Assembly: GCA_016203305.1 (NCBI GenBank)
Contig: JACQMY010000036.1
Span: 1,886 to 65,885, forward strand
Reading direction: 5' to 3'
DNA from: Candidatus Woesearchaeota archaeon
Lineage (GTDB): Archaea > Nanobdellota > Nanobdellia > Woesearchaeales > ARS49
Length of the DNA: 64,000 bases
Notes under the pieces: generated by a model
The model's input: the letters and a program-made list of their open reading frames with translations, nothing else
What the model was told of the DNA's origin: nothing
Database searches by the model: none
Made by a program: the position numbers and the translations under genes
In this document: positions 30,801 to 60,000 of the stretch, in pieces
How positions within the stretch are numbered: position 1 is the stretch's first letter
Layout of the letters: every line of letters starts with the position of its first letter

Positions 30801-31165
30801 CAGCCAAGCACCTTTTTCACTTCCGTAACTAGTTTCTGTTCCGTGACTGGCTTTGTGATATACGCCTTTACTCCCAATCTCAGCGCTTCATCAACGGTTT
30901 CTTTGGCGCGCACGATGCTTACCACGATGCATTTCACGGCAGGATTTATCTTCTTGAGCGCCCGAAACACATCAAGGCCGGCAGGTTCGCCAGGAAGCCG
31001 CAAATCAAGAAGCACTAAATCAGGCTTTTCTTTCCTGTATTTTTCCACGCCTTCGGCACCATTCTCCGCTTCAATGACATCCGTATAGCCGCCCTTTCGC
31101 AGCAAGTTTATGATAGCTTTTCGTTCAAACATCGAATCCTCAATGGTAAGTATTCTTTTTTTCAT
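30800..31165 (-). CDS. second CheY-like single-domain response regulator
   Basis: Receiver 'RILTIEDS', 'LVLLDLRLPG', 'KP'. Start moved to the internal Met (MKKRIL). The longer ORF 30800..31219 overlaps cheW. Confidence 0.75.
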   Translation of the reverse strand: MKKRILTIEDSMFERKAIINLLRKGGYTDVIEAENGAEGVEKYRKEKPDLVLLDLRLPGEPAGLDVFRALKKINPAVKCIVVSIVRAKETVDEALRLGVKAYITKPVTEQKLVTEVKKVLG

Positions 31166-31742
31166 GGGAGATCCTCCTTTTCGTTCTTTGACGCACGACC
31201 TCTTTTTTCGCGTCGGCAACGCTTTTTTGGGGCAATTTTTCCCCTTTCACTCCTCTCGACTCCGCCTGAATCACGATTTCATGCACGTCTGAACTCTCTT
31301 GTTCTGAGAGAATCTTTTGCAAATTCAAGAGTATGACCATACGTTCACCAAGTATGATGACTCCTTGAAGATACTCTGAATGGATTTTCGTTGATAAGAT
31401 CGCAGGCGTCTTCTTGATGGCGTCTTTTTCCGCCCGGAGCACTTCCGAGACCTGTTCAACGATGATGCCAAAAAGATTGTCGCCAGCATTCACGATAAGA
31501 ATGTGCTGCGGTTTGGATTCAGCAGTGACGTGAAATTTCTTTAGAAGATCAATTGCTACTATGATCTTTCCCCGTACATTGATGATTCCCTCGACAAAAA
31601 CAGGAGCGTTTGGAACCTTTGTTATCCTTGTTGCTTTGAGTATTTCCTTGACATCAAGGATCGGCGCAGCATACTCTTCTCCCCCGATAGCAAAAACAAC
31701 GAACTGCAGCTCCTCTTTTGGTTTTTCAAGCTCTGCGTGCAT
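31140..31742 (-). CDS. cheW: chemotaxis coupling protein CheW
   Basis: 'QFVVFAIGGEEYAAPILDVKEI' CheW-domain start. Confidence 0.85.
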   Translation of the reverse strand: MHAELEKPKEELQFVVFAIGGEEYAAPILDVKEILKATRITKVPNAPVFVEGIINVRGKIIVAIDLLKKFHVTAESKPQHILIVNAGDNLFGIIVEQVSEVLRAEKDAIKKTPAILSTKIHSEYLQGVIILGERMVILLNLQKILSEQESSDVHEIVIQAESRGVKGEKLPQKSVADAKKEVVRQRTKRRISHEKKNTYH

Positions 31743-31743
31743 A

Positions 31744-33681
31744 TTACCTTTTCGTTTTTTTCTTTATCCTTGGATCTTCATGCTGAACAGTTTCACGCGC
31801 TTCCTCGCGGGGTTCTGGACTCGTTTGTCGTTTTTGCGGCTCTTTACCCATAAGCACCTGAAGCCTTACGGCGATTTCCGCGAGTTGCCGTGCAGACGCG
31901 CTGACCTGTTGAACCGCAGCGCTCGTTTGCTGCATGGATGCACTTACTTGCTGCGTGCCGGCGGCATTCTCTTCAGCAGTCGCGGCAAGCTCGGTCATAG
32001 CAGCGACTATTTGCTGTGTGCCTGCTTGTTGCTGCTGCGTCGCCGCAGAAATCTCCTGCAACTGGGACGAGATACTTTGGGCAGCCAATGAGATATCTTT
32101 CACCGCATTGAGCGATGCGCCGATTACCTCCGAACCCTGGACGACTTGTTCCGCCCCCTTCTCCATCGAGCTTACCGCAGCATTCGTACTCTGCTGCATG
32201 TCCATGATAAGCGCGGAAATCTGTTCGGCAGCCCTTCCTGATTCTTCAGCAAGTTTTCTGACTTCATCAGCGACCACTGCGAATCCCCTGCCTTGCTCTC
32301 CTGCACGGGCAGCTTCAATGGCCGCGTTCAACGCAAGCAGATTTGTCTGCTCGGCGACGTCGTTGATAGTTTTGATGATTGTGCTTATCTTCGCGCTTTT
32401 CTCACCGAGCGCTTTTATGCCCGCCGTCGAGTCTAGAACACTGGTTTTGATAGCATCCAAATTCTTAACGCCCCGTTCAGCCGCGGTTCCTGCATCAATC
32501 GCTTTTTTGCTCGCATCAGCCGCGCTCTTCGCTGATTTCTGGGCGTTGTCCGCAACCTGGGTGATGGCTGACGACATCTCAGTGATGATTTTCCCAACCT
32601 CTTCAACCTTCTCGGTCGCCTTCGTACTTGATGCTGCCATCTGCTGAGTCGTAGAAGCTATCTCTTGAGTGGCGGATGCGGTCGAAGTGCTGGTTTCAGA
32701 GAGCTGTTCTGACGCGGTAGCAGTGTTCAAAGCAGTATCTTCAATTGTTGCGAAAATCTTTCTTATTAGGAAAAAGCTTACGAATCCCGTGATAAGCATC
32801 GCAACGAGCCCTATCAAAGAGAGCATTGTTGCGAATTGTTCACTTCTTTCCATCTCCCGCATCGTGATTGGTTGGAGTTCCTCATCGAGAAGCACATCCA
32901 TCTCACGGCTTGTTTTTGTGAACAGGTCTATATCGTACGTTTGCCTGTCTTCGTCAGCAATAGTCTCCTTTGTCAACACGCTTATCTTTTGCAATTCCAT
33001 CTTTATTTCCGCAAAGAAATCACGTTCTGCCTGAGAAAGCTCCAAGGTCCGATACCCATCCAGCAACAGTCCAGCACCAGCGATAGCACTATCGACACTC
33101 GTTTTCAGCTTTTGATCGGGCTTTATGAGATACAATTGCAGCAAAGACGTGATTTCGTAAGTCTTGCTTTCCAGCTTGAGAATGAGTTCCTTTTTCTCTC
33201 CCGAACGCGAATCATCCACTCTCAGCGCGCGTACATTGCTCGCAAGAAGTTCGCGCACCTTTTCTTCCAGCCGCAGCCGTTCTTCTCTTTTTTGGATCTG
33301 CTGATCCTCGAGCGCAAAGATTTCCTTCGCTTGAGAGTTGAATTGTTTCATAAACTCTCCGAACCGCAGGAGTGCGTAGCGTTCTTCATCGGTGCGCACA
33401 AGGGCGAGATACGCAGCATACTCCCGGTTCAAATCGTCACTGTTATCGGCAAACTGCACCTTTTCCTCAGGATTCTTTGTCGCTAGATAATCAACTACGT
33501 CTTTTGCGAATTCTTTTTGATTGATTTCCAACTCCATCGCCGCTTGAACCTTGGGAGTTGCATGTCCAACAAGTTCAACGACAGTCGAGCGTATAAAGAG
33601 AAGACTGCCGCCTGCTACCATCAGCACAATGAGAAACAAAGTTATCAATTTGGATTGAGCACCAAACTTTAGTTGAACCAT
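31744..33681 (-). CDS. methyl-accepting chemotaxis protein (two transmembrane segments, HAMP, signalling domain)
   Basis: Highly conserved signalling hairpin '...[34 protein letters not shown]...'. Confidence 0.9.
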
Positions 33682-41219: not shown

Positions 41220-41734
41220 TACTTGACACTGCATTACAAGGCAACCAGGTAGTCCTTCTATTCATCCCTTCAGAAAAATACAACGAAGCAACGATCGACG
41301 TAGCCAAGAAGTTCTCCAGCAAAAAAGTATGCTACATTACCCTAAACAAAACTTATGAACACCTCAGCCAAACATTCACCAGCAAGAACATAAACATCAA
41401 GAACTTCTTCTTCATAGACGCAATAAGCAAAATATTCAAAGAACCAGCCACAACAGACCCCCGCTGCCAAGCAGTAACCCCTGGAAATCTGACAGAACTA
41501 GCATTAGTAATCTCTGAAGCGCTAACAATGAACTTCGACTACATAATCTTTGACAGCCTCACAAACCTCCTGGTATACCAAAAACATTCGGACATACTCA
41601 AATTCATAATGGACCTCTGCAGCAAGGTTAAAACATCCAAAACAAAATGCGTCCTCTACACAATGCAAGAACACCAGGAAATAATCCAACGCGCATGCGT
41701 AATGGTAGACTCGTGCGTCAACTGGGGCAAATAG
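41204..41734 (+). CDS. degenerate KaiC-like protein, tandem paralog
   Basis: 'YIIFDSLTNL'. Same architecture and length as the preceding gene. Confidence 0.45.
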   Translation: MYKKMILDTALQGNQVVLLFIPSEKYNEATIDVAKKFSSKKVCYITLNKTYEHLSQTFTSKNINIKNFFFIDAISKIFKEPATTDPRCQAVTPGNLTELALVISEALTMNFDYIIFDSLTNLLVYQKHSDILKFIMDLCSKVKTSKTKCVLYTMQEHQEIIQRACVMVDSCVNWGK

Positions 41735-41771
41735 GCTTAAATAATATATCATCTGAGTTCTATAAAAAAAG

Positions 41772-43379
41772 ATGAACCTGCAAAAAAAACTAACCATAAT
41801 AATCATAGGCATAGTTCTCATTCCAGGACTTGTAGCCTATTTCACAGTCCAGAAATCACTTGAACATGCCTCCAAGGAAGAAGCAACAAGCTACGGACTT
41901 CCAATAGCGCAACAAATCGCGAAAAATGCCGCCCCACTAGTAATACTCCAGCAAAGACAAGCCATCCATGAACTCATCACCCAAGCACGAGACCCACGAA
42001 TTTCTTACATAGTCATCACAAATCCACAACAAAGAATTCTGGCCAACACAGGAAAAATTCCTACAAAACTACCGCCTTTAACCGGACAGGCAACACTTGC
42101 AGAAGTAGATGGTGAAGAACTTTACGCCATAAGCTCCAAGCTCCCGCAAGAATTAGGAGAAGTCACAATAGGCATTAACACAAAAATGCCCACCAGCAAC
42201 ATCCTTCCACTAATCATACTGAGCACTATCCTCGCAGCAATAACTGCAATCTACACAACATCCAGAATAGTCAGCCCATTACGACAAATTTACAACTCAG
42301 CACACGAACTCAGCCAAGGAAATTTCAACACGAGAATAAACGTCAAAACAGGAGACGAACTGGAAGAATTAGGGAACACGTTTAACCAAGCAACAGAAGC
42401 ACTCGGCAGAATAGACCAAGAAAGAAAACAAATAGACCAAGCAAAGACAAGATTTCTCAGCATAACAAGCCACGAGCTAAGAAGCCCAATGACGCCCATG
42501 AAAGCACAATTGCAAATGCTCGGACAAGGATACTACGGCAAGCTTGGAACAAAGCAAAAACAAAGCGTGGAAATGGTGTTAAGAAACGCAGACCGATTGG
42601 ATTCAATCATTGGTGACTTCCTCGAAATCTCGCGCATAGAAGCAGCAAGACTAAGATTCACCTTCCAAAAAACAAACATTGCCGAAATTGTGCTTGATGT
42701 TGTAAAATACATGAACACATTTATGCCAGACAAAAAGGTAAGTCTGACCACAAAGCTAGGAAAACTGCCAGTTATCGAAGCAGACCCCAACCGCATAAGC
42801 CAAGTACTGCGCAACTTATTAAGCAATGCAATAAAGTTCTCACAGCCCAACAGCACAGTCACCATCGCGGCTGCCGTCAATGGAGAATTCATCGAGTTCA
42901 GCGTCCGCGACACAGGAATAGGCATTTCACAAAAAGACCAAGCAAAACTATTCGAGCCATTCTTCCAAGCAGAACAAACAATATACCGAGAAGGAAAAGG
43001 AGTGGGGCTAGGACTGGCAATCTGCAGAGGAATAGTACTAAGCCAAAACGGCAAAATCTGGGTTGAAAGCCAGCCAGGCAAAGGAAGCACATTCTTCTTC
43101 ACCCTGCCACTAACACCAGTAAAAGAAATAAGACCAATACGCGTACTATTCTCCAGCAAAGAAGCAATTGACCGCAAAATAAAAGAAGCCTTCAAAGAAA
43201 TGCTGGGACCCATCGGCAGCAGCGAATTTGACGACCTCAGACAAAACCTCACCCACGAAAGTCTCAGAAACTACGTAGACGAGCTCAGGAAAAGAAACAT
43301 AATAACACCAGAGCTTGCAGAACAATTCAAACACAGAGTAAACCACGCACTAATGGCAGATGTACATCATGTGAAGTAA
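41772..43379 (+). CDS. sensor histidine kinase (transmembrane, HAMP, HisKA, HATPase_c)
   Basis: 'ITSHELRSPMTPM' H-box. 'LRNLLSNAIKFS' N-box. 'DTGIGIS', 'GKGVGLGLAICRGIV' G-boxes. Confidence 0.85.
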   Translation: MNLQKKLTIIIIGIVLIPGLVAYFTVQKSLEHASKEEATSYGLPIAQQIAKNAAPLVILQQRQAIHELITQARDPRISYIVITNPQQRILANTGKIPTKLPPLTGQATLAEVDGEELYAISSKLPQELGEVTIGINTKMPTSNILPLIILSTILAAITAIYTTSRIVSPLRQIYNSAHELSQGNFNTRINVKTGDELEELGNTFNQATEALGRIDQERKQIDQAKTRFLSITSHELRSPMTPMKAQLQMLGQGYYGKLGTKQKQSVEMVLRNADRLDSIIGDFLEISRIEAARLRFTFQKTNIAEIVLDVVKYMNTFMPDKKVSLTTKLGKLPVIEADPNRISQVLRNLLSNAIKFSQPNSTVTIAAAVNGEFIEFSVRDTGIGISQKDQAKLFEPFFQAEQTIYREGKGVGLGLAICRGIVLSQNGKIWVESQPGKGSTFFFTLPLTPVKEIRPIRVLFSSKEAIDRKIKEAFKEMLGPIGSSEFDDLRQNLTHESLRNYVDELRKRNIITPELAEQFKHRVNHALMADVHHVK

Positions 43380-43385
43380 TAAATC

Positions 43386-43427
43386 AGGATGTAGGTTGTA
43401 GGAAGAAGAGTGGAGGATAATAAGATG
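43386..43427 (+). repeat. heptad (GNNNWAG) tract after the histidine-kinase stop
   Basis: ag gatgtag gttgtag gaagaag agtggag gataata. Confidence 0.5.
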
Positions 43428-43443
43428 GGCCCGAGGAGATTTG
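43427..43443 (+). repeat. 17-bp copy of the tRNA-Ile 3' end (att-like)
   Basis: GGGCCCGAGGAGATTTG is identical to 44641-44657 and 44745-44761. Confidence 0.65.
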
Positions 43444-43582
43444 GGTGTTTACCTTTTTCTTCAATTCTCTGGTAGTTAGATTATCTTGGATTAAGTATTG
43501 GTTGGGTATGTAGGTAGTTAATTTTTGCGCTCATTGTCCAGACCGATACATTTATATATCAGATGGCATATTTATATCTCAT

Positions 43583-44107
43583 ATGATACAAAAATATTCC
43601 AGATATAGAGTTTTGCAACAGTTTTTTGATTTTCCACGCAAAGCATTCTTGATTCGTGAGCTTTCGAGAAATACGAAGCTTTCAGTGCCTTCGGTTCGTC
43701 TCCACATTAAGGCTTTGCGCGCTGAAGGGCTTATCATAAAGGACAACACTGGCCTGTACCCTTCATTTAGAGCAGTGAGGGAAGACTCTTTGTTCAAACT
43801 TCTGAAAGCTCAGAACATGGTTTTAAGGCTCCATCAAACAGGCATTCTGAGCACCATCGAGAAAACTACGTACCCGTCTTGCATTGTGCTATTCGGTAGT
43901 GCTTCCCGAGGCGAAGACGCTGAGGAAAGTGATATTGATTTGTTCATGCAGGCAAAGCGAGTGAACCTTGATTTGAGAAAGTTCGAAAAGGCTTTGAACC
44001 GAAAGGTCAATCTTTTATTCGAACCCGATATGAAAACAATCAGTCCAGAGTTGCTCAATAATCTTGCAAACGGAACGGTAGTGTATGGGTATTTGAAGGT
44101 GATTTGA
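43583..44107 (+). CDS. minimal nucleotidyltransferase (MNT) with an N-terminal wHTH
   Basis: 'LFGSASRGEDAEESDIDLF' GS...DxD motif. Confidence 0.7.
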   Translation: MIQKYSRYRVLQQFFDFPRKAFLIRELSRNTKLSVPSVRLHIKALRAEGLIIKDNTGLYPSFRAVREDSLFKLLKAQNMVLRLHQTGILSTIEKTTYPSCIVLFGSASRGEDAEESDIDLFMQAKRVNLDLRKFEKALNRKVNLLFEPDMKTISPELLNNLANGTVVYGYLKVI

Positions 44108-44539
44108 TTGGAACCATGGACTGAACAATCTGATAAAGTAAGCAAACAACGACCTGACACTGAAAAAGCTCGCGCACTCCTCAAGATGATCGCCCTTCGA
44201 GAACAACGTGCCCAAATAACACCCCTTCCACAGTTTGCCACCTTGTTAGCAGAAGAACTATACGAAATCGTCAAGGAACTCATAACTGGAATAATGAGCG
44301 TTGACGGTTGGAAAACCGCCAGTCATGAACTGCTAATTGGATACCTCGCCAAATTCTATCCTGAATTTAGCACCGCAGAAGTCATGCTCTTGGATCAACT
44401 TCGGGAAATGCGAAACGATATCGCATACCGAGGCGTCATGATAAACCCAGAATATCTAGAGAGAAACCAACAAAATATCTCCAATGCCATTCAAAAACTC
44501 AAACAAATACTAAACGCAAGACTCAACAAAACAAGATAA
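44108..44539 (+). CDS. HEPN-like partner of the MNT
   Basis: Helical 143-aa protein directly abutting the MNT. 'LREMRNDIAYRG' occupies the position of the R-x4-6-H motif, but the His is not conserved. Confidence 0.45.
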   Translation: MEPWTEQSDKVSKQRPDTEKARALLKMIALREQRAQITPLPQFATLLAEELYEIVKELITGIMSVDGWKTASHELLIGYLAKFYPEFSTAEVMLLDQLREMRNDIAYRGVMINPEYLERNQQNISNAIQKLKQILNARLNKTR

Positions 44540-44632
44540 TCACGTTCAAACGTCGGAATTCCACCAGCCTGCTGGCTGGCGAAGTTCAAATCTCCTTGCA
44601 TGATGCGGATTAGCGCGAAGCGAATTAAAAAA

Positions 44633-44657
44633 GGTGGGCCCGAGGAGATTTGAACTC
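44633..44657 (+). repeat. 25-bp direct repeat of the tRNA-Ile 3' end (att-like scar)
   Basis: GGTGGGCCCGAGGAGATTTGAACTC is identical to 44737-44761 inside the tRNA. Followed by T-run on the minus strand. Confidence 0.75.
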
Positions 44658-44738
44658 AGTCCAACCCTTTTGGGCTTGGCCAAGTTCAAACTCCTCACTG
44701 CGCGGCCAGATGTTAGAGCTAACGCTGTGATCATTTGG

Positions 44739-44854
44739 TGGGCCCGAGGAGATTTGAACTCCCGACCACTGGTGGGCTTAGAACGTCCGGGTGTTGTTTT
44801 GTGCCAGACGCGGTCATATAAGACCAGTGCTCTACCAGGCTAAGCTACGGGCCC
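44739..44854 (-). tRNA. tRNA-Ile (anticodon UAU inferred) with a 42-nt intron; CCA encoded (44736-44738)
   Basis: Manual fold: acceptor GGGCCCG/CGGGCCC, D-arm GCTT-AGCCTGGTA-GAGC, anticodon stem CTGGT/ACCAG, loop CTTATA|intron|C, T-arm GGGAG-TTCAAAT-CTCCT, then ACCA. Anticodon depends on the canonical 37/38 intron placement. Confidence 0.6.
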
Positions 44855-44975
44855 AGTGTGCTCGAACTGTTACTGTATTAAAAACTCTTCGGCCATCACA
44901 ATCATTCATCTCAGAAAACCCAAACCAGTATACAAAAGAGTAACTTTTATATACTTGAGTTCTTGTGAAATACTT

Positions 44976-46046
44976 ATGCGTCACGTCGTCATCGCGCTAG
45001 CCGCATTGGTAATACTCCTCGGACTTGCAACAACCCTTGACAGAATTTCACTAGCACCTGCTGTTGTTGTAGAAACAATCATCCAATGCAACGATGGAAC
45101 GTTCGCACACTCACCAGAAGAATGCCCACTTCCACCAGTTCCAACACCAGTACAATTTGAAAGCACTGCATCAGCAGCAGTACAACCACAAATCACAATG
45201 CAGGAAGACCCGATCGGAAAAACATTCCTAAAAAAAATGCCACAAAATTACGTCTACAACAAAGGAGAACTTCCAATATACGCGTCAGGGCCAAGCAGAA
45301 GCACAGGAGAATGGCCGTTCGTCGCACCAGGAATACTCTACTGGAACGTTGAAGACAATAAAGCACTCTACGTCTACCCAGGAGATATCTCACCAGGATG
45401 GTGGGCAGAATACACAAACCAAACAAAACAGGTGATCACCACTGACCTGGTCGGCGCAAGCCTCTACCCCGCAGCACTAATAAGACTACAACTCACAGGA
45501 AACAAAGACCTTGACGAAAACCTGCTGCCAAAAGAATTCCTCAAATACTTCAACTTCCTCTTCAGAGGCACTTTACGCGAAGACAACATAATAAGAACCA
45601 TCGAACCATTCTACAGCAAAAGCCCAATAGAATGGTTTGCCAACTATGCAAGCGACCAGCCGGTCAAAGTCGATACCAAGGAACGAGTTCTCCCAACCAT
45701 TGGCGGAAGCATAATGAGCAAGCTCTCACTACACTATTCAAGCAAGGAAACGACCCAACGCATTCTACGAACACAAGAAGGAAGCGCCTACGAATACAAA
45801 CCAACCCAGTCAGCAGAAATAGTTTTCCGCTTTGATCCAAGAGGAATACCACTAGTTATCGACGAGCTTGACACAGAAGGAAACCTAATCGAAAGACACA
45901 CTTACACAGTCCAGACAACATACAACAGAGATGGCGTGATGAACACCCCAGTGGATCCAAGAATCGTAAACCTACCACCACACCTAATTGTAACAGTCCA
46001 AGACTGGGAAAAATGGACAAACAGCAAAGAAAACATAATGAGATGA
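44976..46046 (+). CDS. hypothetical secreted or membrane-anchored protein
   Basis: Start set at the internal Met (MRHVVIALAALVILLGL, signal/TM). The longer ORF from 44856 would overlap the tRNA. Confidence 0.45.
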   Translation: MRHVVIALAALVILLGLATTLDRISLAPAVVVETIIQCNDGTFAHSPEECPLPPVPTPVQFESTASAAVQPQITMQEDPIGKTFLKKMPQNYVYNKGELPIYASGPSRSTGEWPFVAPGILYWNVEDNKALYVYPGDISPGWWAEYTNQTKQVITTDLVGASLYPAALIRLQLTGNKDLDENLLPKEFLKYFNFLFRGTLREDNIIRTIEPFYSKSPIEWFANYASDQPVKVDTKERVLPTIGGSIMSKLSLHYSSKETTQRILRTQEGSAYEYKPTQSAEIVFRFDPRGIPLVIDELDTEGNLIERHTYTVQTTYNRDGVMNTPVDPRIVNLPPHLIVTVQDWEKWTNSKENIMR

Positions 46047-47134: not shown

Positions 47135-48055
47135 TCACCCCTTTCTAAACCGGTTCAGCAACGCATACCTCCGATACTTCTGAACACCAGACTTCCAAGC
47201 AGCAAGCTCTGCCTTAACTTTCCGTCCACGCTCACGCAACTGCTCCATACGCTGCCGATATGAAAACCTGCCCATCTTACCAGCAAAATACTCCTCCTGA
47301 ACATGTTGCAAAGTCTTATTCGTTGCATCAATCACCCTTGAAGCCTCACGCTCCTTCTGCAAAGCAAACATCACGCGAAACTCAAGCCAGCCCCAAACTC
47401 CCAAAATAGCCAGGATTGCCAGAACCACAATCACACCGATCGTATGCCTCTTGACAAACTCTGTTATGTTCTTCTTTGCAATATAAGCAAACGTGCGTTC
47501 ACGAACGGCAGCAGACTCTGCCTCTGCCAAATGCATCCTAGTGGCATGCACCAAGACAAAAACTTCATCGTACCGTTCTGACTCAAAAGCATCACGCGCC
47601 TTTTCAAACGTCCGGTCAACCAAAGACATATTTACCGAAACATTCACCTGAACCAACAACGCACCCAAATCCTCCAACGCATCACGAGCGTCAAAAGCAG
47701 AAACCTTTTTCTCAGCAATCCATCGCCCAAGCTCAACCACTCTGGTTAAATTCTGACCGGGCCTCAACCCAGCACTCCGCGCTTGTGCAATCATCCTGAA
47801 ATACTCCTCAGCAAGAGGCTTTCCCTCCACTGATTCGTTCAAGTGGACAGCAGTCTGCAACAACGCGAACTCATCACGGCCAACCAAAGAGTCGTTCATT
47901 CTCAATAACGTATCTTCCAAAGAAGCATATGGAAGACCTGCCTTTTTAACCTGAGCAACATCAACAGTAGCGTTCAAAAACACCTCTTTTGCCTGCTCAA
48001 CAGAAACTGCACAAGCCAAAGAAGACAAAACAATTAACAAAAGCAACCACTTCAT
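47135..48055 (-). CDS. signal-peptide protein with a C-terminal TM helix and basic coiled coil; paralog of the giant protein's C-terminal anchor
   Basis: Signal 'MKWLLLLIVLSSLACA'. TM 'IGVIVVLAILAILGVWGWL' followed by a 'QEEYF'-type coiled coil, mirroring the C-terminus of the 4872-aa protein ('WWALALLAALALYGAL...EAQEAYF'). 4-nt overlap with it. Confidence 0.6.
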   Translation of the reverse strand: MKWLLLLIVLSSLACAVSVEQAKEVFLNATVDVAQVKKAGLPYASLEDTLLRMNDSLVGRDEFALLQTAVHLNESVEGKPLAEEYFRMIAQARSAGLRPGQNLTRVVELGRWIAEKKVSAFDARDALEDLGALLVQVNVSVNMSLVDRTFEKARDAFESERYDEVFVLVHATRMHLAEAESAAVRERTFAYIAKKNITEFVKRHTIGVIVVLAILAILGVWGWLEFRVMFALQKEREASRVIDATNKTLQHVQEEYFAGKMGRFSYRQRMEQLRERGRKVKAELAAWKSGVQKYRRYALLNRFRKG

Positions 48056-51000
48056 TTTCCCACCTCTTTCCTCAACTCTGCAATATGCGCGTCCAGCTCA
48101 GTTACCAAACTCTTGAACACCTGCATTCGAAGCTCATATCTCCTCCTGGAAATAACGTGATGAGCAAAATATGCCAATTGAGCCTCGCGCAAGCCACGCA
48201 TTGCCTCCTGGCGTTCTGCGATGGCCACCTTCAAAGCCTGATCCTTTCGGTACAAACGAGAACGCAACAAGCGCAGCCCAACCATGTCGCCAGTAATTCT
48301 TTCCAAACGCAACTGCAACTGGCCACTTGCACGCTCGAACTCCCTGCCACCAAGCTCGCGCCTGACAAAATAAGCCTCCTGAGCCTCACGCAACAACCGC
48401 TGCGCCTCAACACGCTCGCGCAACAACGCATCCAACCTGTACTTTATGAACGCAAGACGCGCAAGAAGCACTGCTTTAAGAGCGCCATACAAGGCAAGCG
48501 CTGCCAGCAACGCCAAAGCCCACCAGTACCTGCGCGCAACACTCTGCCACGTCCAAGCACGCTCTACAACTCTCAACTGCACGGCGAGCGCTTCATCTGC
48601 CAACGAGATCGCACGATCAAAGTCCTCACGCTCGAATGCCTTAACAGCAAGAGAAAGCAACTTCTCAACAGCAAGAACGTCAAGCCCTTCGTCCTCTGCC
48701 TTGTTTATCTCTGTCCTTACCTTATCCAACAAAGCGCCTGCTTCCAACTCGCGCTCCAACAACAAACGCAACTTCTCAACAACATACGCAGACTCCTTGT
48801 AATCACGTTGAACAAGAGCGTTCCTTAACATTCCGCGCAACACATCAGCCCGAGTAACAGGATAATCCTTTGCCACAACTATTGCATACAAGCTCTCCAC
48901 ATCAGTATAAGCACGCTCAACCTCATCCGATGTAACTTCTCGAATAATCAAACGGACCCGTTTGTACTCAACAACAGTCTTCCTAATCTTGGTTGAAAAC
49001 GGCAAACCATTCCTGAACTCAACACCCTCTGCTTCCAACAGAGAAGTCATTATGAAGGTTATGTTTACTTCTGATTGCTGCTCATAAGCAGGAGCGGCAA
49101 GCTCGATATCGAAAATCCTACTCTGCCCATACGGAATGTTCTCCAATGCTTGCGGGGACCAGTGAATGTATCTTGAGAGGTAGCCGTCAACAGTTAAATC
49201 AACACGTTTCATCAAGGAATTATTGTAAACGTTCGTAACAATCAACGGAAATACTATTCTTGTACCACGCTTAACCTCGATAGTCTCATTTGTCACTAAG
49301 GCAGCTCGCTCAAAAAATGTCTTCTGGAACGTGCCGGGATCTATCCCTCCACCGCCACCGCCCGCACCTCCTGCGCCACCAGCACCACCACCGCTGCCTG
49401 AGCCGCCACCTCCTACAACAAATCCAGGACCGGCAACAACCAATACTTGAGCCGTTGTACCAAGCGTCAAGTTCTGAGAAGAAAGCAGGACGCCAGAATC
49501 ATTAAACCCGTCAGCTGCAGTGCTAACATCCCTGAACCCAAGAACTGCGCCTGATGGAATCTGCACAATAATCGGCAACTCCTCACTAGCATTCGGTTCG
49601 ATCGTTCCAAAGAACGTTGACAAACCACCACCAGTTAGCACCCAATCAACAGGCAAGGTTATATTCAAAGTCACATTAGACGCATTCTTCGTGCCTCTGT
49701 TAGTTACCCTTGCAATAATCGAAATTCCTGACTGGCCACGCTGCACTTGAGACGGAATTACTGAAAAGTCGGCAAACAAGAATGCATCATCCACAGTTGT
49801 AATTGTGAAACTTGTGTTCAACTGCGCAGGAGACGCGTTCAGCGAGCTGCCAACAGTGGTCGCGTTGATAGTGATATTATTAGAGAATACACCAACAGTC
49901 CCAGGAGCAGTCGCGTTAACACCCACCATTCTGACCCCGCCAGGAGAAAGAGTAAAGTTAGTCTCGCTGAAGAAGGTGGCATTAAGAGTAGAGTTCAACA
50001 CAAACGATAAGTTCACATCCCCTGTATTATTAATAGTTATATTGCCCATCGAGATATTGACCCCCATCGGACTTGAGAACACACCCAAATTGGCAGGAGA
50101 ACGCGTCCACGTAGCCTCGAATGAAACATTAAACACTACAATTCCAGACGTGCCATTATTTCCTGCGGTGTCATTCCCAGTCATAAACACGATATAACTC
50201 CCCTCGACTGCAAGGAACGAAGCATTAAACTCACCAGTCAAGACATTGAACGACATCGACACATTTGCAAAAGAAGAACCGTTCACCACTATATGCAACA
50301 CCACAGAGTTCAAGTCAACAGCGGTGAAATTATCAGTAATGTTCGCAGTGAAATTAATCAACACTCCTGGATCCAGCGCGTCAACCGTACTCGGAGAGAA
50401 TAACAAACTCAAGAAGTCAGGAGGAGTACGGTCAACAGCAAATACCCTCGTTTCAGACGTGCTTGTATCAGCCGAAGTATCAGTACATGCAACCGCCCAA
50501 GTATAGTTGCCCTCTGACAGGCCTGAGACAGTAAAGTTTACCACTGAGTTATTCAGAACCGAAGAATTTGTCTGATTAACTGAACCATTCAACAACAATG
50601 AACAATTCAAAGTTGCAGACTCCGCGTCAGTCACGTTGGCAAAAAACAACACTGTCAAGTTTGTCGTGTTCGTCCCATTAGCAGGAGCAATGGAAACAAC
50701 AACAGGGGAGAGACCTGAAATAACCGTTGTCGACTCCGTAGCATTCACCTGCACAAACTCGCCTGACACGCTTACCGCTGACACGTTCACAGAGTTATTC
50801 AAAACAGTGCCGTTTGCAATACCATTGCTAACGTTCACCAAAATAGACAAGTTCACAGACGCGCCAGGAGAAAGATTGCCTAGCGAGAACGTACTATTGC
50901 CCGAAGCAGGGGCAGGAGAAGAACTCACAAACAACACGCCAGACGGATAGGTTTCATTCACCGTCACGTTATATGCAATCTCGCCGTCCAGATTCTGCAC

Positions 51001-54000
51001 TGTGATCGTGTAATTCAATTGCGACCCTTGCAAAACAGGATCAACAGAGTCAGATTTTGAAACAGCCAACGCAACAATACCTGCGATTGTTGTCGTCGTA
51101 CTATTCGTTACCGTAAAGTTCTGCCCTGTTGCGTTGGCAAACGAAACGTTATACGAATTATTCAACAATGAACCGTTGAAGGCAGCAAAGCTCACGTTAA
51201 CAGTAATGTTAATCGTTGTTGAACCTCCAGGCAAAATATTGCCAACGCTAAACGTGCCATTTCCTGAGCTTGGAAGAGGCTGACTGCCATTGAACGTCAC
51301 ATTAACAGGATAACCCTCAACAACAGTAACGTTGTACGCAATGTCATCACCAACATTGTTCACCATAATCTGGTACCGCAATGTTGAATTCACCGGAACA
51401 GGATCAGGACTATCAGACTTTGAAGTAAACACAACAGCGAATCCTGTAACAGTTGTGACCTCTGTATCGCTCGACGACCTATTACCGCCAGACGTGTTCT
51501 GGAATGAAACATTCACAAAATTTGAAAGCAACGTTCCATTTGCCAAGCCATTGCTCACATTAACAGTAATGTTCACAGTTGTAGACGCATTCGGAGACAA
51601 GTTACCTAGAGAAAACGTATTGTTTCCAACAGTTGGAACAGGACTACTGTTGTGGAACACAACACCAGACGGATAAGTTTCTGTCAAAGTAACATTAAAC
51701 GCAACATCATCACCAGTATTGTTAACCAAAATACTATAATTCACCTGCTGGCCTTTTATGACCGGATCGGGTGAATCAACTTTTACAACCGAGATCGTTG
51801 CAGCACCCAAAACAGTAGTCGTTGTGCTATTGCGCACAGTCGTGTTCACCCCAGAAACGTTTGCAAACGTAACGTTATAACTATTATTCAAAACCGAACC
51901 ATTCGCTGCAGCAGCGCTTACGTTCAGGGTAATATTCACTGTAGCGCTCTGACCAGGAGACAAGTTACCAAGCGAGAACGTATTGTTCCCAACGCTTGGA
52001 GCAGGACTGCTGTTGTGGAACGTAACATTCTCAGGATAATTCTCAACAACAGTCACATTATATGCTATCTCATCACCAAGGTTGCTTACCACAATGGAAT
52101 ACTGCAACTGCTCGCCTCTTGCGACCGGATCAGGAGCATCAGACTTGCTCGTAAATACAACAGGGAAACCAACAACAGTAGTCTGTTCAGTATCACTCGC
52201 GCTCTGATTTAGCCCAAACGTATTCTGGAAAGAGGCATTTGCAGTATTGTTCAACAACGTTCCATTTGCCAAGCCATTGCTCACATTAACAGTAATGTTG
52301 ACCGTTGTTGAAGCATTCGGAGACAAGTTACCTAGCGAAAACGTATTGTTTCCAACAGTTGGAACAGGACTACTGTTGTGGAACACAACACCCGACGGGT
52401 ATGAATCCAAAAACGTCAAGTTGAACGCAGTATCATCACCAGTATTGTTGATTAAGATACTATAATTCAACTGCTGACCCTTAACAACAGGATCAGGACT
52501 ATCGGTCTTAATCGTAACAACAACCGGCGCGCCCAGCACACTCGTAAGAGTGCTATTCGTAACCGTAGCGTTCTGACCAGAAGCATTCGCAAAAGTCACA
52601 TTATAACTATTGTTCAACACCGTACCATTCACCAATCCAAGGCTCACGTTCACAGTAATATTCACCGTTGTTGACATGTTTGGCGAAAGATTGCCTACTG
52701 AGAACGTGCCGTTTCCTGAGCTTGCAACAGGACTACTACTATGGAACAAGACACCAGAAGGATAACTCTCAACAACAGTCACGTTGAACGCAGTGGAGTT
52801 GCCAGTGTTGTTGATTAAGATGCTATAGTTCAACTGCTGACCTTTCACAACAGGATCAGGACTATCGGTCTTTGAAGTCGAGATAGAAGGCGTAACAAAT
52901 AGTGCAGTGAAGTTCGTAACCTCAGAGCTATTGACTCTGCCACTAGTATCATTCGCTATAATTGTCACATTGTACAAACCAGTGAGCGGGATGAAGAAAG
53001 ATGCATTATACTTACTTGTGCCAGGAACAATCACCAACACAACCTGCTGTATTGTTCCATTAGGCAAGGTCACGTTGGCAAGCACGGTATCAATAACGCC
53101 ATCATCAGTCACGTTGGCAGCAAGCTCAATTGTCTCACCAATGTTAAACGTGCTATTCACAACAGGCCTCAAGTCAAACACCAATGGAGTCACCAAGTCA
53201 CAAGTCCCATCCCACGAACTGCCATCAGTGAAGAAGCCTTTAAACACGCCCTGGCCAGAACTATTCGTGTATGCAACCACAAACCTGCCAGGACAGATAG
53301 AGTTATTTGTAACTGAAACACGACCTGCAACATCCAACAATCTGAACGTACTATTAGGCTGAGACTCGACTGTTATCTCGTTGCTTATGTTGGAACCACT
53401 CGCATTAAAAGTAGCTGCCTTGATCGCACCAGCATTCTCATCCCACCACGCGACAACAGCCACATCCTCAGAGCTTGTCTCATTCATCTTCACAGTACCC
53501 GCCGAAATTCGCGAAATGACTCCTGCATTCCCATCGATAGATGCCGGAGCGAACAGCACCACGTTATCGCTCGTCCTGCCAGCAATGTAAACGTTCTGAT
53601 CAACAGAATCGTAGAATGCCATGAAGAAAGAATTGTTCACTAATGAGCTATTCCCAAGCGAGGTCATCGCAACCTGCCCAGTTTCGCCGACATCAGCATC
53701 TATGTCAACCTGGCCTGTCAACAATGCCCCCGTCTCACTTTGAATGCTGAAAGTAGCATCGTTTGACAAGTCATCAAACCAGAAGTACGCCCACCGTGTA
53801 CTATTCGCACCAGCGCATCCAACCAAATTCTCATTAGGAGCAGCAGGAGCCATGTTGCCATCAACCGCTAACTCCCCAACAGACTGAGTTCCATTATTGA
53901 AGAACGTCAAGAATGACGCGTCTGCGTTCCCATCATTCGCATAACACGTCACAGACTGGTTAACGATAGAGGCAAGCTTCACATCAGTATTCAAACCAAT

Positions 54001-57000
54001 CCCTGCACGCACAACAGTCGGAGAAGTTGTGTTCGTTCCATTTATCAGGAACAGCCCCTGGGTCAAGTCATCAGATGGCCCATCAACCCACGAAATCAAA
54101 AAGTGCGTGCTATTGACCAAAGCAACATCAACCCGCGAAACATTATCCGCAGAAGTATCAACATCAGTCGTGTTCACAATCACGGTTCCATTCGTGTTCA
54201 TAATTCTAAATGAGACATCAGATTCATTGTTGTCAACAAACGCTATCACAAATGCGGTATTGTTAACAGGCGCAATAGCGACATCAACAGCAGAGCTTGT
54301 TTCAAGGAAGCCAGGGTCGTTCGGCGTGATAGTTATTGTATAATTCTGTCCAGGAGAGATGTTCATTATTTCAGACCAGTTACCCAAACACTCCTGACCT
54401 GAGAAGTTATAATTCTTACACGTGTACAAAAGATAGTCTCCAATCGCAGTAACCACTACGCTTGCATTGGTGAAATTAATCCCAGTCGGATCGATAGCGT
54501 ACTCGACAAAGGAGCCATTCGGCGTCTGGCTCTCTGAGAACGGATCATCAATGCGCAAAATACTCAAAATGCTGCTTGAATTGTGCAACAGCATGCTGAT
54601 AGATTTCACACGCGACCCGCTAATATTCGCAGAAAGGTTCAACATGCCAGAAACATTACTCGTCACGGACAAAGTGTAGTTAACAAATCCACCCGTACGG
54701 TTGACTATGTCGATCACATTCAAGCTCTGCCTTATGAACGTCAGCGTGAAAGAGTTGTTCACATTATTCAAAGTATCATTCGCAAATATTCTGATCGTAT
54801 AATTACCACGCTGCGTCAAGTTTGAGAATGACAAATTATACAAAGAGCCAGTAACGTTTGTCGAAAAGTTCTGCAAAGTGCCATCTGGATAGGTAATCTG
54901 CACCATAACCGTGCCAACACCCAGCCAATCAGTCACGTTCGCCGTGATGTTAATAGTATCGTTCAACAAGAACGAACCGCCAGCAACAGGACTCAACACT
55001 GAAACATTCGGAGGATTAACCTTAACGACAACTTGCCGCGTCTCAGTATTGTTGATATTGCCAGCCAAGTCAAACACTGTTGCATTAAAGAAGTACAAAC
55101 CGTCCGCAAGACCTGTGAAGTTCACAAAGTTAGGAGAACTGGAAGTATTACTGCTGTTAATCTCTCCGCCAGTCGAGTTGAACAAGCGAATTGTGGTGTT
55201 CGCAAAGTTCACGTCTGTTCCGGTCAAATTAACCAGGATATTCCGCCTCGCAATTGTGGAACCATTCGCATCAGTCGGAGAAACAAATTCAGCAGCCGGC
55301 CTCAAAGTATCAATCGTAATCGTCCTGTTCCCAGTCTGATTCGAATTACTACCTATATCGCTCACACTGCCAAAGTACTGGTACACGCCATCCGCAAGAC
55401 CTGTGAAGTTATTGAAGAACGACATGTTCAAAGGAGTGTAAGTAATATTTGACTGGTCAATAGTTGCAGTAACTGCAATCACCGGAGCATACTCGATGGT
55501 ATTCGATCCTATAAGCAAGAAGTTTGAAGCATTCTCAAACGTCTTCGGAGAAACATCAGAAGTTCCAATTGTCCCAACATTGTTCCCGTTAACAAGCACG
55601 TTCAAAGTACCGGAAATTACGGAAAAAGTGGCTGTCAAATTAGCCCTTGAAGCATTATCGGCAATAGTAATGACATGGCTCTGTGAGGTAAGACTTGCGA
55701 CAAAAGTTATGTCAGTGCCATTCGCTTCTGACCTGAGAGGAGTTGTAAAGTTCACACGAGAGCCATTAAGCTCGATAAGCGCAACACTCATGTTCGCTTC
55801 GTCAACAGAAATGTTCACGGGCACAAACGTATTGCCTGTAAACGTGTTGTCAGCAGGAGTTGGACCTACAAATCTAATCTGTGGAACAATGGTATCTAGC
55901 CCTACATTGAATGACGTCACCACTGTATTATTGATGTTGCCTTCAGTATCGTTCGCCCTGAAAGTAATATTATACTGCCCGTTCAAGTTCGGCGTTATGA
56001 AAGACCCATTATATTTATCCGTACCTGGAACTCTGGTCAAGTTAACCAAGAACGTCGTACCATTAGGGAAAGTAATGTTCGCAGTCACGTTATCAACAGC
56101 AATATTATCTGTAACGTTTGCAGAGATCTCGATCACGATGCCTGGAGCGAATGCCGTTCCTTCAAACGGACGCACATCAAACACCAAAGGCTGAATAGTG
56201 TCTGCAATAACTGTTGTGTTCTGAGAAGCATTCTGAGTAAAGTTAACACCAGACAGGTTGGCAAAAGTCACGTTAACAGTGTTATTGATGACCGTGCCAT
56301 TCGCCAGACCACGGCCAATATTCAATGTGATGTTAATTGTCGTGAAAGTTCCATTCGTCAGGTTTCCAAGCAAGAACGTATTGTTGCCCGAGCTTGGAAC
56401 AGGTTGGGAGCCATTGAATACTACGCTCACAGGATAATCCTCAAAAACAGTAATGTTATACGCGATCTCATCACCAGTATTGTTCACAACAATCTGATAC
56501 CGCAACGTAGCACCACGCACAACAGGATCAGGACTATCAGACTTATTTACAGAAACTTGAGCAAAGCCAAGAACTGTTGTTAGCTCTGAATCAGACACTG
56601 TGACATTCTGACCAGAAGCATTAGCAAAAGTAGCAGAAACACTATTGTTCAAAACAGAGCCGTTTGTCAAGCCATTACTCACATTAACAGTAATGTTAAT
56701 CGTGGTTGACTGGCCAGGCAACAAAGTGCTAAAGCCAAACGTGTTATTGCCGCTACTTGGAGCAGGCGTACTTGAATGAAACACAACACCAGATGGATAG
56801 CTCTCAACAACAGTCACATTATAAGCGATCTCACCACCCGTATTATTCACAAATATCGAATAGTTCAACTGCTGACCCTTTATGACGGGGTCAGGATTAT
56901 CATTCTTAATCGTGATAACAATAGGAGTACCCTGCACATTCGTAGTAGTACTGTTAGTCACGGTCGTGTTAACACCTGAAACGTTTGCGAACGTCGCATT

Positions 57001-60000
57001 AAACGAATTATTCAAAACAGAACCATTAGCCAAAGCACCACTAACATTAACAGTAATGTTAACAGTCGCACTCTGACCAGCAGACAAGTTGCCCAATGAG
57101 AACGTGTTGTTGCCAGAAGATGGTGAAGGTTGGCTTCCATTAAATACGACGTTTGAAGGATAACTATCAACAACAGTCACGTTATACGCAAATTCATCAC
57201 CCAAGTTTATCACAGTAATCTGATACGACAAAACAGAACCATTCAACACAGGATCAGGACTATCACTCTTAGAAGCGAACACAACAGGGAAACCAAGCAC
57301 AGTAGTAAGCTCAGAATCAACAACAGAACTATTCTGACCAGAACTATTCGCAAACGTAGCATTAACAACATTAGTCAAAACAGTACCATTTGCCAAACCA
57401 TTGCTAACGTTCACAGTGATGTTAATCGTCGTGGAAGAACCATTTGAGATATTGCCAAGCAAGAACGTGCCATTTCCTGAGCTTGCAACAGGACTGCTAT
57501 TATGGAACACCACGCCAGCAGGATAAGTTTCTACTACAGTAACGTTAAACGCAGTATCGTCACCAGTATTGTTGATTAAGATACTATAATTCAACTGCTG
57601 ACCTTTAACAACAGGATCAGGACTATCGCTCTTAATGTTCACAATAACAGGACTACCCAAAACAGCAGTTGTAGTACTATTGGTCACGGTCGTGTTAACA
57701 CCAGACAAGTTCGCAAAAGTAGCATTAAACGAGTTATTCAACACAGTACTATTTGTAAGAGCAGAACTCACATTAACAGTAATGTTCACGGTTGTTGATT
57801 GACCAGGAGACAAGTTGCCAAGACTAAACGTGTTATTGCCACTTGTTGGAACAGGTTGGGAGCCATTGAATACTACGCTCACAGGATAACCATCAACAAC
57901 ACTCACATTATATGCAAACTCATCACCCAAGTTCACCACAGTAATCTGATACCGCAAAGTTGTGCCCTTAGGCACAGGATCAGGACTATCACTCTTAGAA
58001 GCGAACACAACAGGGAAACCAAGCACAGTAGTAAGCTCAGAATCAGAAGCAGAACCATTCTGACCAGAACTATTCGCAAATGTAGCATTAACCGTGTTCG
58101 TCAAAACAGTACCATTAGACAGACCATTACTCACGTTCACAGTAATATTAACAGTTGTAGATGCGTTCGGAGACAAATTACCCAAACTAAACGTGCCGTT
58201 TCCTGAAATTGGAACAGGGCCACTACTATGGAAAACAACACCAGCAGGATAAGTTTCCACCAAGGTAACGTTAAACGCAGTATCGTCACCAGTATTGTTG
58301 ATTAAGATACTATAATTCAACTGCTGACCCTTAACAACAGGATCAGGACTATCGCTCTTCACAGACACCACCACAGGAGAACCAAGCACAGTAGTCAAAG
58401 TACTATTAGAAACTGTTGAGTTCTGACCGGCCAGACTTGCAAAAGTAACATTATAACTATTGTTCAACACGCTATTGTTAGTCAACCCAGCACTCACGTT
58501 CACAGTAATATTAACGGTTGTAGAAACGCCAGGCAACAAATTGCCAAGACTAAACGTGCCATTGCCTGAAGAAGGCGAAGGTTGTGAGCCATTAAATATA
58601 ACGTTTGCAGGATAGCCGTCAACAACAGTCACATTATACGCAATCTCTGTTCCAACGTTATTCACAACAATCTGGTACCGCAAAGTTGTACCCTTAGGCA
58701 CAGGATCAGGACTATCAGACTTGCTCGTGAACACCAAAGCAGCACCCTGCACAGTCGTAATAGTACTATTAGGCACGGTCGTGTTAACACCTGAAATGTT
58801 GGCAAAAGTCGCATTAAACGAATTATTCAAAACAGAACCATTCGCCAAAGCGGCACTCACGTTCACTGTGATATTGATCGTTGTAGATTGGCCAGGCAAC
58901 AAATTGCCAAGACTAAACGTGCCATTGCCAGAAGCAGGCGAAGGTTGTGAGCCATTAAATATAACGTTTGCAGGATAGCCGTCAACAACAGTCACATTAT
59001 ACGCAATCTCATCACCAGTGTTGAATACTGTGATCTGATAACGCAACGTCGACCCATTCAACACAGGATCAGGAGTATCCGCCTTGTCCGCAAACACAAC
59101 AGGGAAACCAAGCACAGTAGTCAAGATGCTTGTGTTAACAGACTGGTTGCCAGTCGAGTTCGAATAGTTCACAACAGCAGTATTGTTCAACAACGAGCCG
59201 TTTGACGCGCTCACGTTCACAGTAATGTTAACAAGGAAAGATCGACCAGCAGAAAGATTACCAATCGTGAACGTGTTATTACCCGAACTTGGAGCAGGCT
59301 GTGAACCGTTAAATACAACGTTTGTCGGATAAGTTTCGCGCACAGTAACATTCTCCGCAACTATCGTACCAGCATTTGACACGTTAATCTGATACCGCAG
59401 CGTTTGGCCTCTCACAACAGGATCAGGACTGTCAGACTTGGCAACAGTCACATTAGTAAACAACGCACCACTAATTGTAAAGGACCCTGAAACAGAGCTT
59501 GACGCACCAGACGAGTCAAGCGCGAACACTGTAAAGTTATACTGACCATTCTGAGTCGTATTAGTGAAGTTCAACTCGTACAACCCACTTGTTGTTGTGC
59601 CGCTCACTAAAGTCAAGTTGAACGACACAATACTACCGTTCGGCAAAGTCACGCTCACGTTAACCCTGCTGATGTTAATGTTATCCGTCGCGTTCACGGT
59701 AAAGTTCACAGTTCCATTTGTCGTGAAAATCGAACCATTTGCTGGAGAAACAACCAGGATGCTCGGAGCGGGATCAAAGCTGCCCCAGGCAAACATTGCA
59801 CACTGAGTCTGACCGTTCAAGCAATCGAGAGCTGTTTCAATAGTGGAAACATTCGTCCAGTTTGAACCATTCCACCTCGCGCTCGCCAAATTCTCTACAA
59901 AGCTAAAACCAAGCATCATAATCTCATTCGTAACAGGATGCGGGTAGAACTCAAGCGTTTCCACGCTATTCCCGCCACCAATCAACGAGCCAGTGAGCGG

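Follow-up and report, generated by a model that had tools for sequence, protein, structure and literature searches.

A wHTH-nucleotidyltransferase/HEPN-fold gene pair bracketed by copies of a tRNA-Ile 3' end, and by other gene ends in further DPANN neighbourhoods

We describe here a small locus in a 64-kb stretch of woesearchaeal DNA (the window), in which two abutting genes, one for a winged helix-turn-helix (wHTH) protein with a minimal nucleotidyltransferase (MNT) domain and the other for a HEPN-fold partner, lie beside a minus-strand tRNA-Ile(UAU) gene and are bracketed by copies of the 3' end of that tRNA, all in the same orientation. On its face, a toxin-antitoxin (TA)-like pair beside a tRNA with repeats is an ordinary genomic islet, and the less ordinary part comes from comparison across contexts. 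One conserved pair is found in 11 different neighbourhoods of DPANN archaea (the window and 10 fetched contexts, all with different neighbours), direct repeats of the 3' end of the adjacent gene bracket it in four of these (with the stop codon included where the gene encodes a protein), and no integrase was called within 3-6 kb of it in any of the 11. Judged from these sequences, the pair and its promoter appear to form a cassette of ~1.0-1.1 kb without a recombinase gene, which changes its position among Woesearchaeota and related DPANN archaea. The features at the window locus are:

43426-43443, minus strand: repeat copy 3, a relic that matches the tRNA-Ile 3' end at 18/18 nt and reaches from within the T-loop to the discriminator, with a T-rich trailer next on the tRNA strand
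43444-43520: left junction filler, unique to the locus and outside the block common to the other cassettes
43521-43582, plus strand: cassette promoter region, with a TATA-like element (ACATTTATATA) at 43548-43558, 25 nt before the ATG
43583-44107, plus strand: gene for the wHTH-MNT protein, 174 amino acids (aa); Pfam Polbeta (1.1e-07), NTP_transf_2 and HTH_5
44108-44539, plus strand: gene for the HEPN-fold partner, 143 aa, abutting the MNT gene; PDC-M05B and fold match
44540-44632: unit A, the filler between cassette and copy 2, with the hairpin CCAGCC-TGCT-GGCTGG and a perfect 14-nt inverted T-arm copy at 44583-44596
44633-44657, minus strand: repeat copy 2, a relic that matches the tRNA-Ile 3' end at 25/25 nt, with TTTTTT (44627-44632) next on the tRNA strand
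44658-44736: unit B, the filler between copy 2 and the tRNA, weakly like unit A, with a degenerate inverted T-arm-like piece at 44672-44692
44737-44761, minus strand: repeat copy 1, the working tRNA 3' end (3 nt of T-stem, T-loop, 3' strand of the T-stem, 3' strand of the acceptor, discriminator, CC)
44736-44854, minus strand: tRNA-Ile(UAU) gene, with 5' exon 44854-44817, 43-nt intron 44816-44774, 3' exon 44773-44739 and CCA 44738-44736

The Rfam tRNA model RF00005 matches 44739-44854 on the minus strand with 58.4 bits (threshold 29) over model positions 1-71, that is at full length; the anticodon loop CUUAUA gives the anticodon UAU, the 43-nt intron follows position 37 and the CCA is genome-encoded. 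An encoded UAU anticodon with an intron of ~43 nt at 37/38 is a conserved trait of the clade (found in the window, L011, L012, L016, L017, L022 and L025-L029). ARAGORN misses this gene, presumably due to the intron, as well as the tRNA at 63100, and Rfam recovers both; these are the two long-intron tRNAs of the window.

The 25-mer shared by copies 1 and 2 (GGTGGGCCCGAGGAGATTTGAACTC) has exactly two occurrences in the window (44633-44657 and 44737-44761), with a chance expectation of zero (no match in any of 100 shuffles, with up to 3 mismatches allowed), in agreement with the original prediction, made from the letters of the window alone, that the tRNA end recurs at the former position with 25 of 25 identities. 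The prediction also placed a 17-nt core at 43427-43443; the recurrence is there, although its length is 18 nt rather than 17 (TGGGCCCGAGGAGATTTG, 43426-43443, 18/18 nt), and together with its flank (43419-43443) this copy matches the tRNA end and trailer of the related locus L011 at 24/25 nt. The inverted T-arm-like copies noted at the same time can also be found, that at 44583-44596 as a perfect complement of the core, and the second, centred on 44672-44692, as a degenerate 19-nt arm with 74% complementarity. Units A and B, which carry these pieces, align with a score of 45 against 19.3 +/- 6.7 in shuffles. They are only ~60% alike and yet their 25-nt cores are identical, which makes a simple old tandem duplication unlikely. 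On the tRNA strand, copy 2 pairs with the inverted piece of unit B in a long hairpin that has U6 after it (z = -3.1), and by means of this hairpin and U6 copy 2 could be kept under selection as the tRNA terminator. In native loci a T-rich trailer follows the tRNA end, and copies 2 and 3 keep such trailers while the working end leads into unit B instead, as expected if inserted DNA displaced old tRNA ends. Neither for the fillers nor for the cassette does the 64-kb window contain a donor copy, and Rfam at permissive thresholds gave no further RNA family in 43380-44980 or around the cassette of L002. Units A and B with their inverted pieces were also considered as relics of a convergent Glu-type tRNA, which neighbours tRNA-Ile in L012 and L016; only T-loop matches of 9-11 nt were obtained, not above shuffles, and this origin was rejected.

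Does the gene pair belong to the tRNA-Ile locus in related archaea? In 14 species-representative genomes the 25-mer is present once per locus, always in tRNA sequence context (two of these loci were checked with Rfam and are full tRNAs), and the same intron-bearing tRNA-Ile(UAU) is present in five of the 14 genome loci and in five metagenome contigs, the gene of the relatives being 86-91% identical. The 13 other loci of the tRNA-Ile(UAU) type, none of which is close enough to the window to provide an exact empty site, each have a single copy of the tRNA end and no cassette. L027/L017 keeps synteny with the window on both flanks of the tRNA, the histidine-kinase block being to one side and the p356 and KaiC-like genes to the other; its DNA between the kinases and the tRNA encodes a PAS sensor, a response regulator and a membrane protein, with neither cassette nor repeat. 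In the metagenome-assembled genome (MAG) CAZXKS01 the tRNA-Ile locus (L011) is unoccupied and the cassette, with an 83% identical MNT, is found on another contig (L032). Alignment with related tRNA-Ile loci had been suggested along with the original prediction, and it upholds the claim that the cassette was inserted at the tRNA between copies of its end, since the cassette is absent from every other tRNA-Ile(UAU) locus examined. By this comparison the gene pair is best regarded as an insert beside tRNA-Ile.

Two further observations concern the surroundings of this tRNA. An independent Logan unitig (L001, SRR12113383) corresponds to window positions 41691-43559 and stops inside the cassette promoter; its end suggests a branch in the assembly graph, due either to several cassette variants in the sample or to an occupied/empty polymorphism. 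In seven related genomes (L011, L012, L016, L022, L025, L026, L029) tRNA-Ile adjoins two M16-peptidase genes, which in the window are located at 9735-12349, 31 kb off, and the window and L027/L017 have the histidine-kinase block beside the tRNA; the gene orders suggest that the DNA downstream of tRNA-Ile is a rearrangement breakpoint in the clade.

The TATA-like element and a palindrome at 43564-43601, which overlaps the promoter region and may be an operator, are conserved in all 11 cassette contexts, and the presence of the conserved TATA-like element upstream indicates that the gene pair carries its own promoter. In the MNT protein, Pfam Polbeta and NTP_transf_2 score above their cut-offs and the motif of the GSx10DxD type is intact, with G105, S106, D117 and D119 (D117-I-D119) invariant in 17 homologues, while the NCBIfam MntA equivalog model reaches only 29.5 against a cut-off of 60, so that the protein is not an equivalog. 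The 143-aa partner and its 114 database homologues have no Pfam family, and a sequence search of the PDB with the partner profile gave no match, leaving the fold search alone informative. An AlphaFold model computed from the alignment of database homologues has a pLDDT of 94.8, and nearly all its best PDB neighbours are HEPN proteins (AF_0298, 2hsb, TM 0.63-0.70; TT1696, 1ufb; HepT, 7bxo and 5yep; sacsin, 3o10), with weak E-values for these fold matches (best 8e-3). The canonical Rx4-6H RNase motif is absent from the partner, and in its place there is an invariant R102-N-D-I-x-Y107-R-G motif with tyrosine at the histidine position in 28/28 aligned members; an invariant histidine, H73, is found elsewhere. 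Both PADLOC models of PDC-M05, a candidate defence system of undemonstrated function, are matched (PDC-M05A by the MNT with 1.6e-14, PDC-M05B by the partner with 1.6e-05). There are at least 575 MNT homologues, nearly all of 174 aa, in Woesearchaeota, Nanoarchaeia and Aenigmarchaeota, and a partner of 139-144 aa follows the MNT in every locus fetched; the partner family is restricted to DPANN archaea.

An MNT/HEPN-like pair was predicted between the outer repeat copies and is indeed there. The designation is correct for fold and gene order, and membership in the characterised HepT/MntA family is not established. Likeness to the type VII HepT/MntA systems (PMC7641770, PMC11586414) extends to the order of MNT and then HEPN, the abutting genes, the intact nucleotidyltransferase motif and the presence of HepT among the best fold matches, whereas the extra N-terminal winged helix on the MNT, the partner without a Pfam match and RNDIxY in place of Rx4-6H set the pair apart from the systems described in these studies. 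Overall the pair looks like a putative type VII-like TA or defence module, with toxin-antitoxin activity as a predicted function. The cassette is not marked out by its G+C content (0.42-0.43 against ~0.44 locally), and composition was discarded as evidence of insertion, as the window varies in composition and the local A>T skew is missing from the MNT gene alone.

In the 10 fetched neighbourhoods the cassette is found near genes for LemA and ProRS; a GatB/E-like protein; ferredoxin; phosphoglucomutase and a protein kinase; PrmA and RpoL; HicAB and a giant protein; SMC and IMPDH; epimerases; GatD; and, in L031/L032, unannotated genes. Nucleotide homology between the window and the other contexts starts ~60-95 nt before the ATG and ends at the stop codon, and among the non-window contexts it extends ~25 nt past the stop codon. 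Since the homology is limited to the promoter and the two genes, these represent the unit, and the repeats as well as the fillers at 43444-43520 and 44540-44632 lie outside it. In a separate comparison of strains that are 99.5-99.8% identical (L049 against L052/L053), positions 2206-2416 of L049 are swapped for ~1 kb with a 278-aa open reading frame (ORF), and the right breakpoint, 59 nt before the MNT start, coincides with the left cassette edge.

The repeats that bracket the cassette in four contexts are copies of unrelated gene ends:

Window: tRNA-Ile end, 18 and 25 nt
L006: end of the GatB/E-like gene, 97 nt identical, 103 nt with one mismatch
L008: end of the ferredoxin gene, 68 nt, 81% identity
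L047: end of the epimerase gene, 77 nt, 83% identity

Around control pseudo-cassettes such repeats were seen at 3/237 positions, compared to 4/11 for the real ones (Fisher p = 7e-5). The inserts between the repeats measure ~1005, 1034, 1096 and 1189 nt, so each consists of the cassette and little else, with ends that vary from 9-85 nt before the TATA box and from 3-93 nt after the stop codon; terminal inverted repeats joining the insert ends were not found. A transposon, insertion sequence or miniature inverted-repeat element with defined ends was rejected on these grounds, that is the variable ends, the missing terminal inverted repeats and repeat lengths of 18, 68, 77 and 97-103 nt. The L008 structure recurs in three independent assemblies (L008-L010), and its two repeat copies differ at 12 codons, nine of them synonymously, with no indels and with the frame and the same stop codon kept (P ~1e-3). 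This bias indicates that the copies diverged as parts of working genes, so that one copy represents the end of a foreign or allelic gene and not a decayed local duplicate. L047 shows the same synonymous tendency, which is not significant. In L006 the copies are identical and the event must be recent, yet the insert is already cassette-only. The idea of a cassette targeted to tRNA ends is left unsupported, as the tRNA is only one of several kinds of target: elsewhere the same cassette is bracketed by GatB/E-like, ferredoxin and epimerase gene ends, and seven contexts are without a repeat. No earlier description of gene-end repeats around HEPN/MNT cassettes was found in the literature searched.

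What could have moved such a unit? Between or near the window repeats there is no integrase or integrase fragment, the only real ORFs being the MNT and HEPN genes, and none is encoded between 40.7 and 47 kb of the window, where the neighbouring genes specify a histidine kinase, DUF835-like proteins, an unknown protein and a KaiC-like ATPase. Neither the 25-mer nor a relative of the MNT was found in IMG/VR viral contigs, which gives no evidence of a viral carrier, and no autonomous element with the same attachment site was found in the window or in the fetched loci. The one tyrosine integrase of the window (PF00589, 6e-21; 24136-25395, minus strand) follows directly after tRNA-Gly(GCC) at 25455-25538. 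The block at this tRNA also contains a wHTH-MNT gene (15504-16091), a gene for a HEPN protein of family PF05168 (15004-15507), a TPR protein, a further nucleotidyltransferase and a TrmB regulator; the candidate repeat of the tRNA-Gly end (ATGCGCCGTCCG, 13744-13755) is 12 nt long and, at E = 0.5, suggestive without being significant. Going by these features, 13744-25538 is probably an integrated island of ~11.7 kb.

Relics of tRNA ends also accumulate without the cassette. The second intron-bearing tRNA of the window (63100-63203, plus strand, 32-nt intron) is probably tRNA-Glu(UUC), and its end ATCCCGTCCGCGGCAC is found at 63189-63204, 63354-63369 and 63467-63482, the last two being relics with a T-run. 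The fillers are ~150 and 98 nt long and the first contains an inverted T-arm-like piece (GGGGATTTGAAC), so the array at 63100-63484 has the architecture seen at tRNA-Ile without the cassette. A search of other tRNA ends for similar duplications with nucleotidyltransferase/HEPN cargo had been suggested, and in the window this one has the duplication but not the cargo. In another population, L028 (Ga0209541_10368554) has a 17-nt partial copy of the 3' end (GGTGGGCCCGAGGAGAT, A-rich flank) ~90 nt downstream of the tRNA-Ile gene; an unrelated filler of 73 nt with two hairpins lies in between, and this small duplication at the same tRNA is an independent one. In L016, a relic (ATCCGTCCGCGGCAC) with a T-run, preceded by an inverted T-arm-like piece (GAGGATTTGAACCCTC), lies at 2600-2706 between the convergent Glu-type tRNA and tRNA-Ile. 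Over the two window arrays, L028 and L016, 4/5 of the short relics start inside the T-loop (5/6 with the L016 relic, which has one base deleted). Tyrosine integrases that target tRNA genes classically cross over in the T-loop.

The reading that we favour, with a probability of roughly 45%, is that of a cassette-sized unit which recombines within a shared gene-end segment with the catalyst provided in trans; our confidence is not higher because neither a circular form nor an empty allele of this locus is observable in the data at hand. We infer a circular intermediate, a single crossover with its catalyst and an order of two events as follows. The cassette would enter as a small, probably circular DNA that shares a short identical or homologous stretch with the target gene at its 3' end, and a single crossover inside the shared segment would regenerate a complete gene end beside the gene body, leaving the other copy, still followed by the old trailer, across the insert (tRNA - copy 1 ... 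cassette ... copy 3). As the catalyst, we slightly prefer host homologous recombination to a resident tyrosine recombinase. Unit B and copy 2 would then have been added by another small event, of 104 bp and with the same topology, and the relic with its inverted partner would now provide the hairpin and U6 that end the tRNA transcript. Once inserted, the module would be retained by addiction or by a defence benefit. By analogy, this topology resembles attP x attB integration and the homology-anchored displacement of orphan arrays (PMC5361080).

Several points weigh against this proposal. The repeats of 18-25 nt are short for homologous recombination, the model leaves the origin of the first repeat at each new target unexplained, and no flanking repeat was detected in 7/11 contexts. 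The codon pattern in L008 could also have been produced by later allele replacement of the ferredoxin gene. Compared with MAG CAZXKS01, the divergence of the cassette (MNT 83%, HEPN 72% aa identity) is similar to that of one host gene (67%), and there is no apparent sign of recent horizontal transfer of the cassette. No polymorphism of this locus was seen, and scans of sequence collections yielded no other contig that carries it, a single short Logan contig (L001, ending at 43559) overlapping it. An exact look-up of the MNT gave no match, and that of the histidine kinase retrieved only a Logan contig of 1.9 kb. The relic starts in the T-loop point, by analogy, to a site-specific enzyme, at least for the tRNA cases, and the integrase island of the same genome, with another MNT/HEPN pair, makes cargo of an integrase-bearing element a realistic origin.

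These last points lead to a possible, though doubtful, alternative, in which one or two integrative elements used a tyrosine integrase acting on the T-loop-to-3'-end segment of tRNA-Ile, and later deletions in a streamlined genome spared only the addiction module, which cannot be lost, and relics of the attachment sites; in a variant of the same explanation the unit would resemble a cis-mobilisable element (CIME), flanked by attachment sites, devoid of a recombinase and dependent on a related integrase acting in trans. The hallmark of integrative elements is a direct repeat of a tRNA 3' end, the relic boundaries fall in the T-loop, the perfect inverted T-arm copy 36 nt from copy 2 is reminiscent of an inverted core-type site, the integrase after tRNA-Gly comes with a wHTH-MNT/HEPN pair in its own block, and addiction would account for the TA-like pair as the sole survivor. 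It is difficult to reconcile with the lack of any integrase or fragment between or near the repeats, with its retention in 0/11 contexts and with the failure to find an MNT relative or the 25-mer in IMG/VR. Cassette-only inserts at four unrelated targets would need four integrases and four convergent deletions, some reaching to within 3-9 nt of the cassette, and the identical 97-nt repeats of L006 mark a recent event in which the insert is nevertheless down to the cassette. The scar of an integrative element with a surviving addiction module, as originally proposed, is in this way possible but not favoured, since 4/4 inserts are cassette-only (1.0-1.2 kb) and no integrase is near any of the 11 contexts. 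The differences at mostly synonymous sites in L008 bear instead on local duplication during replication or repair, with template switching at the T-arm hairpin or at gene ends giving duplication-inversion-duplication structures, a cassette copy templated from elsewhere in the genome and the repeats as target duplications formed in place, as they would not be expected for a neutrally decaying local duplicate. Inverted T-arm copies beside direct partial copies that start in the T-loop are the expected signature of a strand switch, small arrays without a cassette exist at the window tRNA 63100-63203, in L016 and in L028, repeats of 18 to 103 nt and insert ends that are not fixed fit such a process, and a divergence of the cassette like that of the host gene fits relocation within the genome. 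Units A and B, ~60% alike with identical 25-nt cores, are however left unexplained by simple old tandem duplication, and with no donor of filler or cassette in the 64-kb window we consider this explanation improbable.

Could the relic array and the cassette simply be independent of each other, with a long-resident pair at a place where tRNA-end relics accumulate? Relic arrays without a cassette are known, and so are seven contexts in which the cassette lacks repeats, but the excess of bracketing gene-end repeats over the controls (4/11 against 3/237) and the other genes, with no cassette, found between the histidine-kinase block and the tRNA in the syntenic L027/L017 make such a coincidence highly improbable. 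An assembly artefact, in which the repeats would come from a misjoined circular element or from strain variants, we regard as scarcely credible: the perfect 97-nt repeat of L006 could in principle represent a single walk of the assembler round a cycle, and the independent Logan unitig L007 starts and ends inside this repeat, but the window repeats of 18 and 25 nt are below typical assembly k-mers, those of L008 and L047 have diverged and are no assembly cycles, and the L008 structure was recovered in the three independent assemblies.

How does the favoured recombination within a gene-end segment compare with known systems? Tyrosine recombinases insert genomic islands and integrative elements in tRNA genes (archaeal 'gene capture'), and some integrase subfamilies cross over in the T-loop. 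Like tRNA islands, the window locus has foreign DNA between direct repeats of a tRNA 3' end, a restored tRNA, a displaced end with its native trailer and relic boundaries in the T-loop; in contrast to them, the insert is only 1.2 kb, no integrase is in or next to it, and the same cargo is elsewhere bracketed by the ends of protein genes. CIMEs are remnants of integrative elements that are flanked by attachment sites and lack recombination genes. They share with the locus an attachment-site-like repeat on both sides, the lack of an own recombinase and the small tandem accretion (copy 2 and copy 1), and differ in that here the window and the fetched loci revealed no autonomous counterpart with a matching attachment site and four unrelated targets flank one cargo family. 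To our knowledge, no transformation system is known for these archaea. For the orphan gene ends of Rhs, contact-dependent inhibition and type VI secretion effector-immunity arrays a homology-anchored displacement has been proposed (PMC5361080). As in such homology-facilitated illegitimate recombination, DNA is anchored in a conserved gene, the old end is kept downstream and arrays build up, although the cassette anchor comprises only the last 18-103 nt of unrelated housekeeping genes or of a tRNA, and the cargo is always the same TA-like pair (compare PMC5361080).

A bolder form of the proposal, which we consider rather unlikely, is that the wHTH-MNT/HEPN pair represents a new kind of integrase-less mobile unit of DPANN archaea, travelling as a minicircle whose 'attachment site' would be the 3'-end stub of its last neighbour gene and which would re-enter the genome by recombination in that stub. 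If true, it would explain both the cassette-only inserts at unrelated loci and the positional instability despite vertical-like divergence. Participation of the wHTH-nucleotidyltransferase itself in the insertion is more remote still. TA and small defence modules change position between genomes, and the movement of a bare two-gene cassette is rarely visible, while here the joints can be seen in four genomes. If the carried gene-end stub recombines, this would be a simple and testable way for selfish or defensive cassettes to spread through streamlined DPANN genomes, and stub recombination would then also explain short 'orphan' gene ends and tRNA-end relics in these genomes. For annotation, the comparison carries a warning that tRNA-end repeats alone do not indicate a tRNA-specific integrase.

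Some minor observations may be added. L011, L012, L016, L022 and L032 are titled 'uncultured Methanosarcinales archaeon' but share the Woesearchaeota-type tRNA-Ile(UAU) and the M16 peptidases (64-67% aa identity); the Methanosarcinales label of these MAGs and contigs looks doubtful, and MAG CAZXKS01 also has the cassette (83%). In the window, a single 4873-aa ORF with many internal repeats of ~360 nt occupies 48052-62670 on the minus strand, and L029 and L022 match it at many offsets. Finally, 26464-33681 contains a complete-looking chemotaxis set (CheD, CheC, CheA, CheB, CheW and a methyl-accepting protein) in a DPANN-type genome.

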